This document shows, one piece after another, positions 58 through 62,709 of a stretch of 64,000 nt of DNA. The position numbers and the translations under genes are program-made. The stretch's first letter is position 1, and each line of letters begins with the position of its first letter. The notes beneath the pieces are model-generated. The model was given only the letters and a program-made list of their open reading frames with translations, was not told the origin of the DNA and searched no databases. The stretch comes from an uncultured Gammaproteobacteria bacterium (lineage in GTDB: Bacteria; Pseudomonadota; Gammaproteobacteria; UBA9214): the NCBI GenBank assembly GCA_963748215.1, contig CAVVHS010000006.1, positions 608,001 through 672,000 on the forward strand, read 5' to 3'.

Positions 58-645
58 ATGAACATGACCGGAATCCTGTCCCTTGCCGGGCTGCTGGCCA
101 TTTCCGCCTTTGCCGTGGCGCGATACGGCATGACCGCCCCGGCCGACGGCGCGGCATCCGGCGCACCCGACCCGGAACATGCGGAACAGGCAGGCAACTA
201 CAACAAACCCTCGGACGAGGAGTTGCGCGCCAGGCTGACGCCGCTACAGTACGAGGTCACCCAGCGAGAGGCGACCGAGCGCGCCTTCCAGAATGAATAC
301 TGGGACAACAAGGCCGCGGGAATTTATGTCGATGTCGTATCCGGTGAGCCACTGTTCAGTTCCACGGACAAATTCAAGTCCGGTACCGGCTGGCCCAGTT
401 TTACCCGGGCGATTGCCGATGACGCGCTGGTCGAGCATACCGATACGCGTTTTTTCATGAAACGCACCGAACTGAAGAGCCGGCAGGCGGCTTCACATCT
501 CGGCCACCTGTTCAATGACGGCCCCCAGCCGACCGGCCAGCGCTATTGCATCAACTCCGCCTCGCTGCGTTTCATCCCGAAGGAGAAGCTGGCCGAGGAA
601 GGCTACGGTGAATACCTGCAGCTGTTCGAGGACGAGCAACCCTGA
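58..645 (+). CDS. msrB: Peptide-methionine (R)-S-oxide reductase MsrB with N-terminal signal/membrane anchor
   Basis: [18 protein letters not shown] and RYCINSASL motifs; hydrophobic N-terminus; no Zn-binding CxxC pairs. Confidence 0.95.
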
Positions 646-653
646 AAACCTGT

Positions 654-689
654 CTCGCGCACGACTACATCCCTGTAGTCGTGCGCGAG
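654..689. repeat. Perfect 16-bp-stem hairpin between convergent genes (REP-like / possible bidirectional terminator)
   Basis: CTCGCGCACGACTACA-TCCC-TGTAGTCGTGCGCGAG, flanked by GAAAAC/GTTTTC. Confidence 0.85.
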
Positions 690-8837: not shown

Positions 8838-9101
8838 GTAGCCCGCCTTTTGCGCCAGCATCCGGGATGCTGGCGCTGGACAGGTGCGGCTGGGCGCTGC
8901 TCTGGAACGAAAGTGGTAGTTGTAGCTACCACTTGAGTGAAGAGCAAGTCCAGGCGTGACTGGACCAGTCAGAGCCCGGATAGGCTGCGGTCCGACGAAA
9001 AACTACCCTTCGGAAATTATCCTGAACATTGACAGGTACACGTTTGTTGTACAGCAGTGTATACGCGGGTCCGCGGCCGGCTGGTGCAAAAGGCGGGCTA
9101 G
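8838..9101. mobile_element. Diverged long-form copy (264 bp) of the CTAG-bounded MITE-like family
   Basis: Inverted ends GTAGCCCGCCTTTTGCGCCAG ... CTGGTGCAAAAGGCGGGCTAG; internal 8862-8981 aligns with segments of the 52777-53279 copy. Confidence 0.8.
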
Positions 9102-9201
9102 GCTTCAACTGGCGGACCTTTTCCGGTAACGTATCGGCTCTGCTCGCGGGCGCAACCGGCCCGTGCTTATCCGGACTTCAATTACATATCAGGGAACTGC
9201 C

Positions 9202-11302: not shown

Positions 11303-11430
11303 CTAGCCCGCATTTCTCACCGGGTTGCAGTTAACCGACATAATGAGCCGAAACCATGAAGCTAATACCCATTCGTCAACCAACAGTGTGTCAGTGGGCG
11401 GTGCCTAACCCGGTGAGAAATGCGTGCTAG
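11303..11430. mobile_element. Short-form MITE-like element (128 bp); right CTAG contains the ppiD stop codon
   Basis: TIRs CTAGCCCGCATTTCTCACCGGG / CCCGGTGAGAAATGCGTGCTAG. Confidence 0.9.
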
Positions 11431-13426: not shown

Positions 13427-13503
13427 TGGCGGAGTGGACGGGACTCGAACCCGCGACCCCCGGCGTGACAGGCCGGTATTCTAACCAGCTGAACTACCAC
13501 TCC
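13427..13503 (-). tRNA. tRNA-Asp(GTC)
   Basis: Cloverleaf GGAGTGGTAGTTCAG...CCTGTCACG...GTTCGAGTCCCGTCCACTCCGCCA. Confidence 0.97.
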
Positions 13504-13510
13504 TGATCCT

Positions 13511-13586
13511 TGGTGGGTGCTGAGGGGATCGAACCCCCGACATTCGCCTTGTAAGGGCGACGCTCTCCCAGCTGAGCTAAGCACCC
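13511..13586 (-). tRNA. tRNA-Val(TAC)
   Basis: GGGTGCTTAGCTCAG...CCTTACAAG...GTTCGATCCCCTCAGCACCCACCA. Confidence 0.97.
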
Positions 13587-20227: not shown

Positions 20228-20312
<85 letters not shown>

Positions 20313-20480: not shown

Positions 20481-20556
20481 TGGTGGGCCGTGTAGGAATC
20501 GAACCTACAACCAATGGATTAAGAGTCCACTGCTCTACCAATTGAGCTAACGGCCC
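20481..20556 (-). tRNA. tRNA-Lys(CTT)
   Basis: GGGCCGTTAGCTCAATTGG...GACTCTTAATC...CACGGCCCACCA. Confidence 0.96.
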
Positions 20557-20624
20557 AAAGAGGCGGTATTGGACCACAGCGTCAGAAGTGGATCAAGCGA
20601 TGGCGGCGGTCTGTCAGGGTTGAA

Positions 20625-20701
20625 TGGGGTGGACGATGGGACTCGAACCCACGACGACTGGAATCACAATCCAGGGCTCTACCAACTGAGCTACGCCCAC
20701 C
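20625..20701 (-). tRNA. tRNA-His(GTG), including encoded G-1
   Basis: GGTGGGCGTAGCTCAG...GATTGTGATTC...CCACCCCA. Confidence 0.96.
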
Positions 20702-20741
20702 ATTGACATTCAAATCTGCTGGCACCCGCACCGTTTCGAAC

Positions 20742-20818
20742 TGGCGCGCCCGGCAGGACTCGAACCTGCAACCCTCGGCTTAGAAGGCCGATGCTCTATC
20801 CGGTTGAGCTACGGGCGC
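20742..20818 (-). tRNA. tRNA-Arg(TCT)
   Basis: GCGCCCGTAGCTCAACCGG...GCCTTCTAAGC...GGGCGCGCCA. Confidence 0.96.
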
Positions 20819-20860
20819 AGTTCAGCAGTCTTGCCGTGATTGCCCGCTCCTCGTACTGTT

Positions 20861-20937
20861 TGGTCGGGGTAGAGAGATTCGAACTCCCGACATCCTGCTC
20901 CCAAAGCAGGCGCGCTACCAGGCTGCGCTATACCCCG
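20861..20937 (-). tRNA. tRNA-Pro(TGG)
   Basis: CGGGGTATAGCGCAGCCTGG...CTTTGGGAG...ACCCCGACCA. Confidence 0.96.
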
Positions 20938-24252: not shown

Positions 24253-24990
24253 ATGCCCTGCACCCTGTTCATTTCGGACCTGCACCTGGATCCGGAACGG
24301 CCGGCGATCACCGCCCTGTTTCTCGACTTCCTCGCGGCGCGTGCGGGTCACGCCGATGCGCTGTACATCCTGGGCGACCTGTTCGAGGCATGGATCGGCG
24401 ATGACGATGATTCGGAGCTGAACCGGGGCGTGTGCCACGAACTGGCACGCTGCGCTGCGGCGGGCACCGCCGTTTACGTCATGCACGGCAACCGCGACTT
24501 CCTGCTCGGCGAGCGCTTTGCGAAGCAGTCGCACTGCACGCTGCTCGATGATCCCGCCTGCATCGACCTGTACGGCACGCCCACCCTGCTCATGCACGGT
24601 GATCTGCTGTGCACGGATGATACCGAATACCAGGCCTTTCGGGTCCAGGCGCGCAGCGCGGCATGGCAGGAAGAACTGCTGGCGAAAACTCTGCAGGAAC
24701 GCCGTGCCATCGCCAGCGAAATGCGCCGGGTCAGCCGCGAGAAGACCGGCGGCAAGCCTGAATCCATCATGGATGTCAACGCGACAGCGGTCATCGAGCG
24801 CATGACAAGGCACGCCACGATCCGCTTGATTCACGGTCACACGCACCGCCCGGACATACACGAACTGGTCATCGACGGCAGGCCCGCACAGCGCATCGTG
24901 CTGGGCGACTGGTACGAACAGGGCAGCGTGCTCGAATGTACGCCGAACGGATGCGAGCTGGAGTCACTCGAACCGCGGCGGACTTCCTAG
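24253..24990 (+). CDS. lpxH: UDP-2,3-diacylglucosamine diphosphatase
   Basis: FISDLHL, LGDLFE, HGNRDF, HGD, HGHTH. Confidence 0.96.
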   Translation: MPCTLFISDLHLDPERPAITALFLDFLAARAGHADALYILGDLFEAWIGDDDDSELNRGVCHELARCAAAGTAVYVMHGNRDFLLGERFAKQSHCTLLDDPACIDLYGTPTLLMHGDLLCTDDTEYQAFRVQARSAAWQEELLAKTLQERRAIASEMRRVSREKTGGKPESIMDVNATAVIERMTRHATIRLIHGHTHRPDIHELVIDGRPAQRIVLGDWYEQGSVLECTPNGCELESLEPRRTS

Positions 24991-25114
24991 CCCGCATTTC
25001 TCACCGGGCAGCTGTAGACAGACATAATGAATTGAAATCACGAAAGTGATACCCATTCAGCAAACAACAGTGTGTCATCAGGCGGTGCCTATCCCGGTGA
25101 GAAATGCGGGCTAG
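24987..25114. mobile_element. Short-form MITE-like element (128 bp); both terminal CTAGs contain the stop codons of the convergent flanking genes
   Basis: Perfect 22-bp TIR CTAGCCCGCATTTCTCACCGGG / CCCGGTGAGAAATGCGGGCTAG. Confidence 0.93.
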
Positions 25115-32115: not shown

Positions 32116-32137
32116 CTGGCCCGCATTTCTCACCGGG
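32116..32137. repeat. Solo terminal repeat of the MITE family; supplies the folC TGA stop
   Basis: CTGGCCCGCATTTCTCACCGGG, 21/22 identical to the TIR; no partner end nearby. Confidence 0.8.
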
Positions 32138-52456: not shown

Positions 52457-52780
52457 ATGAAAGCACGCAACATCATCAGCGCCGCAATCCTCGCCGTGTA
52501 TCTCGCCGGCGGGATGCAACCCGTACACGCCGACAACGACATTCCCTGGAACAGCCTGAGTCGGAGCGAACAATCCCTGCTCATGAAACACCAGGGTGGA
52601 TGGACGAGCCTGAGCGGCAAGGAACAGCGCCGGCTGGTAAGTGGTGCAAGAAAGTACCTGGAGTTGCCGCCCGACCAGCGCAAGGCGGTCGAGGACAAGC
52701 GCAACCAGTACAAACGCATGTCCCCTGAAGAGCGGGAGCAACTGCGCGACAGATACAGCAAGCAGAAGAAATACCGCTAG
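52457..52780 (+). CDS. Exported DUF3106-like protein
   Basis: Signal peptide; repeated W/Y-x-x-L/M-S/P-x-x-E/Q helical units; TAG stop lies in the MITE CTAG. Confidence 0.8.
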   Translation: MKARNIISAAILAVYLAGGMQPVHADNDIPWNSLSRSEQSLLMKHQGGWTSLSGKEQRRLVSGARKYLELPPDQRKAVEDKRNQYKRMSPEEREQLRDRYSKQKKYR

Positions 52781-53279
52781 CCCGCATTTCTCACCGGGAT
52801 CCCGGAAGCTGGCGCACGACTGAAAGGACGCAGGAGGTAGAGCAACGCAGGGAGCAGTTGCCGAGGGCTCGTGTGACCGGGCGCCGCTCTGGAATGAAGG
52901 ACCCGCTCGAGGCGCAGAGCAGGGGCCCCGGCGTAGCCGGGGATGCGACCGCCGGTGGGCGGAAGATCGCTTCGAACACCACCGCGGGTCTTCGCTCCAC
53001 CGGGGGTCAGATCCCCACCGCTGCGCGGCGGGGCCCCTCTTCCGCCCCTCGAAGCGATGCAGCCGTAGCAACCACTTGAATGAAGAGGCCGCTCCCGGCT
53101 TCCTGCCTCCCGCGGCACTTGCACTTCCCTGTACATCGCAAGTACGGGTGCACGAGAACCAGTCAGGGCCGGGATAGGCGCCGCCCGATGACACACTGTT
53201 TGTTACTGAATGGGCATCACTTTCATGATGTAAATTCAGTATGTCCGTCAACAGCCGCCCGGTGAGAAATGCGGGCTAG
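52777..53279. mobile_element. Long-form MITE-like element (503 bp) with three nested insertions
   Basis: Perfect TIRs; core at 53169-53279 is the reverse complement of the short form; CCGGGAT direct repeats at 52794-52800 and 53169-53175. Confidence 0.9.
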
Positions 53280-53384
53280 GCCCGGCAGCGCCCGCACCGG
53301 GGACCGGGCCGGCGATACCGCGGGCCGACCATCTCTGGTATGCTTCGCTGCCATTTTCACGGGCACGCAGGCGACGCCATCATC

Positions 53385-54206
53385 ATGCAACCCATGCTCA
53401 ACATCGCGGTTCGCGCCGCACGCAATGCAGGCAATATCATCGTCAGGAGCCTGGACCGTCTCGACAGCCTTGCCATACATACCAAGGACCGCAACGATTT
53501 CGTGACCGAGATCGACCAGCATGCGGAACGCGAAATCATCGGCACCCTGCGCAAGGCCTTTCCCCGACACAGCATCCTGGCCGAGGAAAGCGGTACGCAC
53601 GACGGTGACGAATACCAGTGGATCATCGACCCGCTCGACGGGACGACCAATTTCCTGCACGGATTCCCTCATTTCGCCGTCTCGATCGCCCTCCGCCACC
53701 GCGGCAGGCTGGAGCAGGCGGTGATCTACAATCCACTGAGCCAGGAACTGTTCACGGCCTCGCGCGGAGCAGGCGCACAGCTCAATGACCGGCGGATTCG
53801 CGTCAGTTCCCGCAAAAGCCTGGACGGTGCCCTGCTGGGTACCGGCTTCCCCTTCAAGACCCAGCAGTATCTCGACCCCTACCTCGATATGTTCCGTGCC
53901 CTGTTTCCGGAAACTGCCGGCATTCGACGTGCCGGCTCGGCGGCACTCGACCTGGCATTTGTTGCCGCCGGCAGGCTCGACGGTTTCTGGGAGATCGGCC
54001 TGAATATCTGGGACATGGCGGCCGGTGTCCTGCTGATCCAGGAAGCCGGCGGGCTGTGCAGCGATTTTGTCGCCGGTCACGACTACCTGGAGAACGGCAA
54101 TCTGGTAGTTGGCAATCCGAAAGTGTTCGCCGAAATCCTCAAGGCCATCCGGCCGCACGTAACGCCCGAACTCGCCGCCCGTCACCTGCCCCTGCACCCG
54201 ACCTGA
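53385..54206 (+). CDS. suhB: Inositol monophosphatase family protein SuhB
   Basis: MQPMLNIAVRAAR, WIIDPLDGTTNF, WDMAAG. Confidence 0.96.
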   Translation: MQPMLNIAVRAARNAGNIIVRSLDRLDSLAIHTKDRNDFVTEIDQHAEREIIGTLRKAFPRHSILAEESGTHDGDEYQWIIDPLDGTTNFLHGFPHFAVSIALRHRGRLEQAVIYNPLSQELFTASRGAGAQLNDRRIRVSSRKSLDGALLGTGFPFKTQQYLDPYLDMFRALFPETAGIRRAGSAALDLAFVAAGRLDGFWEIGLNIWDMAAGVLLIQEAGGLCSDFVAGHDYLENGNLVVGNPKVFAEILKAIRPHVTPELAARHLPLHPT

Positions 54207-62582: not shown

Positions 62583-62709
62583 CTCGCCCGCATTTCTCAC
62601 CGGGCGGCTGTTGACGGACATAATGAATGAAATCATGAGAGTGATGCACATTCAGCAACAAACAATGTGTCATCGGGCGATGCCTATCCCGGTGAGAAAT
62701 GCGGACTAG
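62583..62709. mobile_element. Short-form MITE-like element (127 bp)
   Basis: CTCGCCCGCATTTCTCACCGGG ... CCCGGTGAGAAATGCGGACTAG; core nearly collinear with the 24987 copy. Confidence 0.9.

Follow-up and report, generated by a model that had tools for sequence, protein, structure and literature searches.

Small hairpin units nested in a miniature transposable element upstream of a putative suhB gene in an uncultured gammaproteobacterium

In an uncultured gammaproteobacterium (GenBank assembly GCA_963748215.1), most of the region upstream of a gene that we take to be suhB, a putative label given at the first reading of the sequence, is filled by one composite element. It lies in a 64,000-nt stretch of contig CAVVHS010000006.1 (positions 608,001 to 672,000; "the window", to which positions given without a contig refer). 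Its host is a miniature inverted-repeat transposable element (MITE), whose central module holds three extra segments: a small unit, A; a long hairpin, H; and a second small unit, B. We consider it probable that the block is a layered element made of non-autonomous mobile units. Units A and B lead an existence independent of the MITE, A was gained precisely and with outgroup polarity at other sites in this lineage, the units adjoin short target motifs, and the composite reached the suhB site as a unit. The genome under study (G000) comprises 3.52 Mb in nine contigs, with ~60% G+C and 95% completeness; other genomes compared are given G-numbers, and contigs C-numbers.

Anatomy of the composite and its arrival at suhB

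The composite starts with TAGCCCGCATTTCTCACCGG and ends with the exact complement of that start. Unit A is bounded as GCTGGCGC^...^AGGGCTCG, with an ambiguity of 1 nt, and forms the hairpins CTGAA-AGGA-CGCAG, a degenerate version of hairpin 1, and GCAAC-GC-AGGGA-GC-A-GTTGC; unit B is bounded as GAATGAAGA^...^GCAAGTACGGG. The 161-nt stretch 52899-53059, which covers H, folds at -107 kcal/mol. In pairwise alignment, 162 nt replace the AGTGGT of other copies, for a net gain of 156 nt, and H is not a perfectly clean insertion, because its right flank is TGCAGCC and not TGGTAGCC. The nearest member of the subfamily that lacks the interruptions is G000:C9:28845-29090 (246 bp, with 93% backbone identity), and against it the lengths close: 246 + 48 + 156 + 51 = 501. 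Across an alignment of 16 copies, A, H, and B are present or absent independently of each other, so the three segments are not a product of chance; sister copies in this alignment carry additional nested units.

A first-pass annotation, made from the letters alone, had described three insertions within one 120-bp segment of a single MITE copy and a composite that fills most of the space upstream of suhB. The three segments are real, with coordinates that shift by at most 1-2 nt, all of them fall within one 120-bp module (52801-53175 here), and the block takes up 503 of the ~604 nt between the stop of the upstream open reading frame (ORF) at 52780 and the suhB start at 53385. The comparison copy chosen at that time, 8838-9102, belongs to a diverged subfamily, with a module only 77-79% identical, and the C9:28845 copy is the better reference.

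The composite did not grow at this site. In five of five same-genus relatives examined (G045, G008, G002, G049, and G018), the upstream ORF and suhB are adjacent and the site is MITE-free. The empty site of the closest of them, G045 (95% identity), reads ...AAATACCG TTAA GCCCGG..., and its upstream ORF ends with CGT TAA; ACCG CTA[G...C]TAG GCCC in G000 corresponds to ACCG TTAA GCCC in G045, which is compatible with a CTAG ancestor. A 1085-nt metagenome contig also skips 52777-53279, joining 52776 to 53280 with TTAA between them and sides of 183 and 521 nt. Moreover, a sister copy at ~C6:568415-568916 has A and B units identical to those of the window (48/48 and 51/51). The view that the insertions took place in this very copy is thus contradicted: empty suhB sites and a sister with identical A and B mean that the composite transposed here ready-made. 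Since A+H+B composites are also found at other loci in G045, the nest, with its identical sister, predates the G000/G045 split, and the insertion at suhB came later. We conclude that the composite arrived as a unit, after this split, at a CTAG that overlaps the stop codon of the upstream gene. Some metagenome joints leave out precisely A (48 nt) or H (162 nt, AGTGGT between); with sides of only 21-35 nt, they may stem from other MITE copies, and we do not count them as signs of polymorphism. The region C6:858-878 kb is not syntenic with G045.

The host MITE is a numerous family in G000. A search for its terminal inverted repeat (TIR; 20-22 bp, the 22-nt arms of the window copy being perfectly complementary) with up to four substitutions returned 97 sites, which form 36 convergent pairs of 123-683 bp plus one 40-bp pair. 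Among the 36 copies, 14 are ~126 bp, 7 are ~246 bp, 13 are longer, and 2 are of other sizes; most are flanked by cTA...TAg, in keeping with duplication of a TA inside CTAG. What distinguishes the 246-bp form from the 126-bp form is an additional palindromic module of 120 bp, M120, between CCGGGAT repeats. All 40 high-scoring segment pairs of M120 are within this MITE family; either M120 was inserted, or the 126-bp form may have arisen by deletion from one repeat to the other. With the whole block as a BLAST query, G000 yielded 133 high-scoring segment pairs, including three near-full copies: ~C6:568415-568916 (95.2% identity over 502 nt), C6:112246-112747 (89.1%), and C6:221561-222000 (89.2% over query positions 63-503). 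For several of the 246-bp copies, alignment is limited to query positions 1-40, 88-122, 285-311, and 362-503.

The family shares with IS630/Tc1-mariner-derived MITEs its TIRs, a TA duplication within CTAG, the lack of coding sequence, and a high copy number. Unlike for them, no cognate transposase was found for it in the G000 assembly. The host MITE may instead have an IS5 (IS427-group) origin; the IS427 group prefers TA and CTAG targets.

Four further MITE copies are present in the window: the diverged 265-bp copy at 8838-9102 and minimal copies of 125-126 bp at 11304-11429, 24988-25113, and 62584-62708. An unpaired MITE TIR is found at 32117. The G045 sites orthologous to G000:C9:27758 and C9:26313 hold a 126-bp minimal MITE (122 nt plus TA ends) and a 125-nt insert, both missing from G000, and an additional nested A/E-type block is located in G045 at C2:2617xx. 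In an Rfam scan of the window, the only hits were eight tRNAs, clustered on the minus strand (five in 20484-20937, one in 20231-20312, and two in 13430-13586).

Table 1. Features of the block upstream of suhB, in window positions
Feature	Position	Strand	Remarks
Upstream ORF, 142 aa	52352..52780	+	TAG stop 52778-52780 = duplicated TA + first G of the MITE
Composite MITE with flanking TA duplications	52778..53278	+	TA at 52778-52779 and 53277-53278
MITE 126-bp core	52778-52800 plus 53176-53278	+	Paired-TIR and copy comparison
Left TIR, GCCCGCATTTCTCACCGG(GA)	52780..52799	+	
Right TIR	53257..53276	-	
120-bp palindromic central module M120	52801..53175	+	375 nt here through A, H, and B; CCGGGAT direct repeat borders
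Unit A, 48 nt, two hairpins, then AGG	52816..52863	+	
Segment H, long near-perfect hairpin	~52901..53057	not assigned	Copy alignment, folding
Unit B, 51 nt	53087..53137	- (GGA-loop strand)	GTACA-GGGA-AGTGC, then GCCGC...GCGGC
suhB-like gene, start MQPMLNIAVRAARNAG...	53385..54206	+	74-95% identical DNA in five same-genus relatives

Units A and B outside the MITE

The first-pass annotation had reasoned that if the inserts never occurred elsewhere, a shorter copy would simply be a deletion derivative. Units A and B do occur in other contexts. An nhmmer search of G000 with A gave 50 hits at E ≤ 1, 32 of them at E ≤ 1e-3 and 21 full length, mostly outside the MITE. Stand-alone A and B matches are present in 23 of 24 other same-genus genomes, where the only matched parts of the 503-nt query are A (36-90) and B (311-366); the MITE backbone appears, among the matches listed for these genomes, in G008 only, with 150 further matches beyond those listed.

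The distribution of A reaches far beyond the genus. A 30-nt degenerate pattern of the A core matches at least 119 stretches in public genomes, many of them from Methylobacter and others from Methylococcaceae, Sedimenticola, Acidiferrobacterales, Thiohalomonas, Endozoicomonas, Shewanella, Thalassotalea, Pseudomonas, Lysobacterales, Ectothiorhodospiraceae, a metagenome-assembled genome of Mariprofundaceae, and a tubeworm endosymbiont. Methylobacter tundripaludum SV96 alone has 42 copies, 21 forward and 21 reverse, and none of the reversed control pattern. In an even sample of the class (which includes G154 and G308, both A-negative), 27 of 301 genomes, or 24 of 264 genera, contain the A core at up to two mismatches, whereas the control has no matches. 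In four sediment or marine metagenomes, summed word depth over A (52810-52860) is 324-1441, compared to 4-19 on the unique flanks, so A is abundant across many organisms there.

The A consensus, ACGACTGCAnGGATGCAGGAGGTAGAGCAACGCATGGAGCAGTTGCCG, starts with ACGAC, ends with GCCG, and forms two hairpins. In 47 distinct copies, 97.3% of cells are paired, whereas shuffled alignments average 89.8% and none of 500 attained the real figure, and 44 double-change cells are seen where 10.5 are expected, with four covarying pairs; the right half of A was preselected by the search pattern, which permitted nonpairing combinations that were almost never seen. The xGGA loops of both hairpins and the linkers are invariant.

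Two observations concern A-like arrangements. At window positions 635-682, a simple perfect hairpin, CCTCGCGCACGACTACAGGGATGTAGTCGTGCGCGAG, resembles A hairpin 1 enclosed by inverted CTCGCGC ends. In M. tundripaludum (G041), C3:65531-65850 and C3:81779-82106 are two same-strand A pairs with a spacing of ~290-297 nt; they are 16 kb apart in opposite orientation and could be the borders of a longer segment that was duplicated or inverted.

Read as its reverse complement, B shows the architecture of A: GTACA-GGGA-TGTAC, followed by GTCGC...GCGAC. Among 15 B hits in G000, 10 are at the canonical MITE site and 5 are elsewhere; in other species, all five copies examined are outside the MITE, two of them in the loop of TTCGCGCCT^GCAAGGCGCGAA, two in loops of GTAG-type repetitive extragenic palindromes (REPs), and one elsewhere. 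Both stem variants of B (GTCGC/GCGAC and GCCGC/GCGGC) are found at the MITE site, and neither A nor B has flanking direct repeats. Unit C (42 nt), of a related type, is represented by 28 full copies, which are preceded by GGA in 25 cases and followed by TG in 27; each of the 28 is nested in a GGA loop, whether that of a different unit or that of the MITE. Hairpin loops of the xGGA type are common to all unit types, A, B, C, D, and E.

Unit A has a preferred right neighbor. At 76 unique sites, it is followed by A at +1 in 69, G at +2 in 68, and R at +3 in 67; the left flank is weakly constrained. AGR belongs to the target rather than to the element, because AG is part of the arm of the host palindrome, as in CCTTCTCCCTCAGGG^AGAAGG. 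As AGR survives insertion, tandem arrays and self-nesting can arise, as at GGAGGT^AGAGCAA.

The polarity of A insertion can be read from a small cassette outside the window, between xth and its neighbor, that carries a GxxExxY (PDDEXK_3) nuclease gene. The cassettes of G002, G008, and G018 are free of A, each end reading CTCGCGC|AGAGACGC; in G045 a single end carries A, and in G000 both do, each difference being exactly 48 nt at CTCGCGC^AGAGACGC. A further A, at C2:269377-269424, is found in G000 only and is exactly missing in G045. These gains left no target duplication. Thus, A was gained precisely, with outgroup polarity, at the two cassette sites in this lineage.

The cassette, at G000:C2:264448-265135, has inverted ends composed of CTCGCGC plus three AGAGNCGC octamers. 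It is present in G000, G045, G002, G008 (broken), and G018; in G049 and G024 it is missing, with 19-25 nt between the anchors, so the cassette is itself an insertion polymorphism.

Unit A also inserts into genes. In other genomes, it occurs in frame, as 16 codons; 11 of 12 such ORFs match Pfam above the cutoff, and domain matches to UvrD_C, Flavoprotein, SQHop_cyclase_C, and tRNA-synt_1b span the insert. We saw no in-frame A within an ORF of the window, and in G000 A is mostly intergenic. Other hosts of A, in distant genomes, include the center of an unrelated ~250-nt palindromic MITE (G100:C57; L211) and, at G100:C18 and G166:C176 (L217 and L218), a GTAG-REP loop beside a gene for a REP-associated tyrosine transposase (RAYT) and a CCTTCTCC...GGAGAAGG palindrome.

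It had been proposed that several classes of tiny mobile units, H among them, prefer palindromic repeats as targets. The independence of A and B bears out part of this, as does an excess of repeated flanks: the flanks of 16 of 21 full A units recur elsewhere, whereas the rate for control positions outside ORFs is 25.6% (binomial 1.8e-6), an enrichment to which survival bias in neutral DNA could contribute. A preference for hairpin loops and the mobility of H did not hold up, as described below.

Weighing the explanations

The arrangement was probably assembled in layers. The first is the MITE, with TIRs of 20-22 bp and a 126-bp core that bears M120, inserting at CTAG with TA duplication in the manner of IS630/Tc1. 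The second is A and B, from families of 42-51-nt modules with two short xGGA-loop hairpins, which insert as DNA, precisely and with no target duplication, beside N^AGR (A type) or GGA^TG (C type); other palindromic repeats abound in these motifs, as do the units, and tandem and Russian-doll arrays result. The third is H, whose 157-nt hairpin is restricted to the present MITE lineage. The nest was built elsewhere before the split from G045, copied whole by MITE transposition, and dropped at the stop codon of the upstream gene after the split, and recombination may have further shuffled insert states among MITE copies. The enzyme that carried the units in trans, in the form of folded single strands, may have been an HUH Y1 nuclease of the RAYT or TIRYT kind or another structure-specific enzyme.

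That an HUH Y1 nuclease moves the units is the leading candidate explanation, and a tentative one: the logic of a hairpin plus a short motif resembles that of REP/RAYT and IS200/IS605. The accessible part of PMC3333891 describes cleavage of single-stranded DNA at C^T by Escherichia coli TnpAREP; CT is also what the complementary strand of the A target shows. Y1_Tnp genes are found in 25 of 27 genomes with A and in 152 of 273 without it (Fisher 1.2e-4), a result that is unchanged without G154 and G308. G000 has five Y1 genes: three are subclass 2.1-like in the scheme of PMC6006769, one is a related long copy (C9:71345-72160) that was not placed, and one is 2.5-like, with its own GTAG REPs. Besides C9:71345-72160, Y1 proteins are encoded at C3:109354-110121, C9:315993-316769, and C2:111830-112333. 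For TIRYT subclass 2.1 orphan Y1 HUH proteins, PMC6006769 gives no known DNA substrate. In our view it is conceivable, short of likely, that an undescribed guild of 42-51-nt GGA-loop modules (A/E, B/D, and C) constitutes the smallest mobile DNA of Gammaproteobacteria, with short targets of their own, parasitizing each other as well as MITEs, REPs, and, in frame, essential genes, and moved in trans by an unlinked enzyme, for which the orphan Y1 proteins of TIRYT subclass 2.1 would be candidates.

Several results weigh against the layered, trans-mobilized reading. The association of Y1 with A is confounded by phylogeny and mobilome size, and two A-bearing genomes, G007 and G038, lack a Y1 match at E ≤ 1e-8. 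The suggested search for a mobilizer gene, RAYT or other, flanked by the units was fruitless, and neither A nor B flanks any of the five Y1 genes of G000. Relative to local GC skew, A in G000 shows no replication-strand bias (16 versus 14, p = 0.86, with a small n of 30), which counts against an IS608-like lagging-strand mechanism because such a mechanism would predict bias. We found no autonomous A element in G000: no gene lies between split A halves, and each right half has a left half within ~260 nt; close inverted A pairs were likewise absent from M. tundripaludum. The driver of the MITE is also missing, as the IS630-type transposase PF13358 has no match in the 95%-complete G000 and no TIR pair there is spaced ~1.1 kb apart. 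Hairpin-loop positions are not enriched among A sites (40 of 76, versus 262 of 468 control AGR sites), and reconstructed empty sites are only slightly more structured (-15.7 versus -13.4 kcal/mol). Inside the MITE, the direction of gain or loss of A and B is not polarized at any orthologous locus. Finally, copies that bear H are not monophyletic on a tree of 246 backbone columns (supports 0.4-0.98), an alignment too short to tell recurrent insertion from recombination, and to account for their scatter one has to invoke precise loss or else recombination between copies.

One further candidate mobilizer, the GxxExxY (PDDEXK_3) nuclease, was rejected. Its single gene in G000 is the sole gene enclosed by inverted A units; the family is missing from the A-rich M. 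tundripaludum and G024, and no A is nearby in G002, G008, and G018.

Among abundant short repeats of G000, 14-mers in CGTAGGGTGCGTTTTACGCACCGG occur up to 161 times (a GTAG REP), GATAATGGCCACGGAATCCACGGAAGAACACGGAAAAAT 97 times, GACGTGAGACGTGAGACGTGAAA 59 times, and TGTAGGAGCGCATCTCATGCGCGATG 60 times; the last resembles REPs that flank the RAYT gene at C2:111830-112333.

Segment H does not behave like A and B. The idea that it is an independent mobile unit is not supported: every copy looked at sits within the MITE (8 of 8 in G000, all at the same MITE site, and 2 of 2 loci examined in G045, the only other genome with full copies, with 7 matches), and we saw no sign of independent mobility. 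Across 37 genomes of the genus, 4 matched H in total, 2 of these only weakly.

An alternative is that the units hitchhike by gene conversion or template switching between host repeats, such as MITE copies, ends of octamer arrays, or palindrome arms. In 19 MITE copies, all four A/H and all four H/B character combinations occur, and the nonmobile H is polyphyletic. The second cassette A, in the inverted arm, is one mismatch away from the first and could be a copy made by intrapalindrome correction, and the four A units of C2:248-270 kb have private variants in common. What such exchange leaves unexplained are first arrivals at nonhomologous sites (unrelated genes in frame, CCCTCTCCC palindromes, REP loops, and a different MITE in G100) and the conservation of the AGR target across orders; the flanks of the G000-only A at C2:269377 are only ~75% like the cassette ends (by eye, over ~32 nt). 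As a general explanation we therefore regard it as unlikely. The mosaic of insert states within the MITE is a narrower matter: it may come from recombination among MITE copies rather than from repeated targeting, and, because recombination or precise loss occurred, it cannot prove repeated targeting by A and B.

We give rather less credence to the notion that the GGA-loop hairpins are selected regulatory modules, for instance CsrA/RsmA sites that here control suhB. Hairpin 1 of A matches what we take to be the CsrA consensus from in vitro selection, ACARGGAUGU; xGGA loops recur in every unit type, with an AGGAGG in A; loops and linkers are invariant, stems covary, and units often adjoin gene starts or ends. 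The resemblance to Csr/Rsm GGA-hairpin RNAs is nevertheless one of motif only, since units lie in both orientations, inside ORFs as well as between genes, and within this one element B and A are antisense to each other. A scan of 52600-53450 predicts neither promoter-like nor terminator-like sites, and at E ≤ 10 Rfam returned no relevant family for the block region, Csr/Rsm small RNAs included, the only hits being weak generic long-hairpin microRNA models on H. Selection, moreover, supplies no copying mechanism.

That the composite is the ancestral form, from which shorter MITE copies such as 8838-9102 arose by precise loss of A, H, and B, is very improbable overall, and for A and B it is already refuted. 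A and B are found in many unrelated contexts and genomes, outgroups show that A was gained, not lost, at two sites, and no direct repeats flank either unit. The confinement of H to the MITE would suit deletion, as would the instability of long perfect palindromes, the interspersion of H-bearing and H-less copies on the backbone tree, and the 7-nt direct repeat around M120, which could mediate slippage; yet all H-less copies, even those of the diverged subfamily, keep a central hairpin, GTGGTAGC-CGTA-GCTACCAC, that H disrupts. Lastly, copying by a retron-type or group II-type reverse transcriptase, through RNA or a small single-stranded DNA that is then inserted at nicks, would accommodate the lack of target duplication, the small and strongly folded units, and their high conservation across orders as copies of a conserved template, but we find it hardly credible given both orientations relative to genes and no poly-A or other retro-signature.

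Relation to known repeats and significance

Insertion of small mobile modules into a MITE, our preferred reading, has partial precedents. Like REPs, bacterial interspersed mosaic elements (BIMEs), and REPINs, which RAYT (TnpAREP) Y1 HUH nucleases mobilize, A is a tiny noncoding hairpin repeat with many dispersed copies in mosaic and tandem arrangements, and its hairpins are maintained by compensatory change. REP-type repeats can lie inside other palindromes and occasionally in frame in genes, according to the accessible part of PMC3733652. Unlike REPs, A lacks a GTAG or CGTC tag (as these are defined in the same part of PMC3733652), has two 5-7-bp hairpins rather than one long imperfect palindrome, and has a defined target motif and self-nesting; it is one family across orders, whereas REPs are species specific, and the units flank no Y1 gene, whereas REPs flank a single-copy RAYT (REPtron).

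Rickettsia palindromic elements (RPEs) are described as in-frame palindromic repeats in functional genes (PMC10969869 and PMC3733652, both in part). Similarly, A forms a 16-codon insert in UvrD_C, SHC, TrpRS, CoaBC-type flavoprotein, and other domains. RPEs are ~100-150 bp and restricted to Rickettsia, in contrast to the 48-nt A of Gammaproteobacteria, which is mostly intergenic in G000. Cyanobacterial SDR4-6, reportedly the subject of Elhai et al. 2008 (Genome Res 18:1484), are said to be 21-27-nt hairpin modules that nest in each other. For SDR5, the accessible part of PMC4390886 describes insertion at a fixed position within HIP1. A-type units share with SDR4-6 their tiny hairpin modules, precise insertion into other repeats, and nesting; they differ in phylum, sequence, and size, in their two GGA-loop hairpins, and in their targets.

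The palindrome-associated transposable elements (PATEs) derived from IS200/IS605 are similar to A in having hairpins near both ends, no target duplication, and a retained short adjacent sequence. At 48 nt, A is far below known minimal ends, its two hairpins are dissimilar, and it has neither a replication-strand bias nor an autonomous tnpA-bearing partner. The behavior of A-type units thus combines traits of REP/BIME, RPE, SDR, and IS200/IS605 elements and fails the defining features of each. In a literature search by motif string and topic, the main texts (supplements were outside its scope) contained no description of an A-type family, and the available part of a 2024 MITE review does not mention nesting.

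These findings bear on both the genomes that host the units and the study of small repeats. A-type units add 16-residue inserts to conserved enzymes, fill promoter-proximal DNA, as at suhB, with strongly folding sequence, and hamper assembly and annotation. To our knowledge, the movement of REP-like and smaller repeats is a long-standing open question, most families being old and without datable gains. The A family offers outgroup-polarized precise gains between sister species, simple target rules, and cultured hosts (SV96, with 42 copies), making trap assays (with a target such as CTCGCGCAGAGACGCAGAG) and in vitro tests of candidate nucleases feasible.

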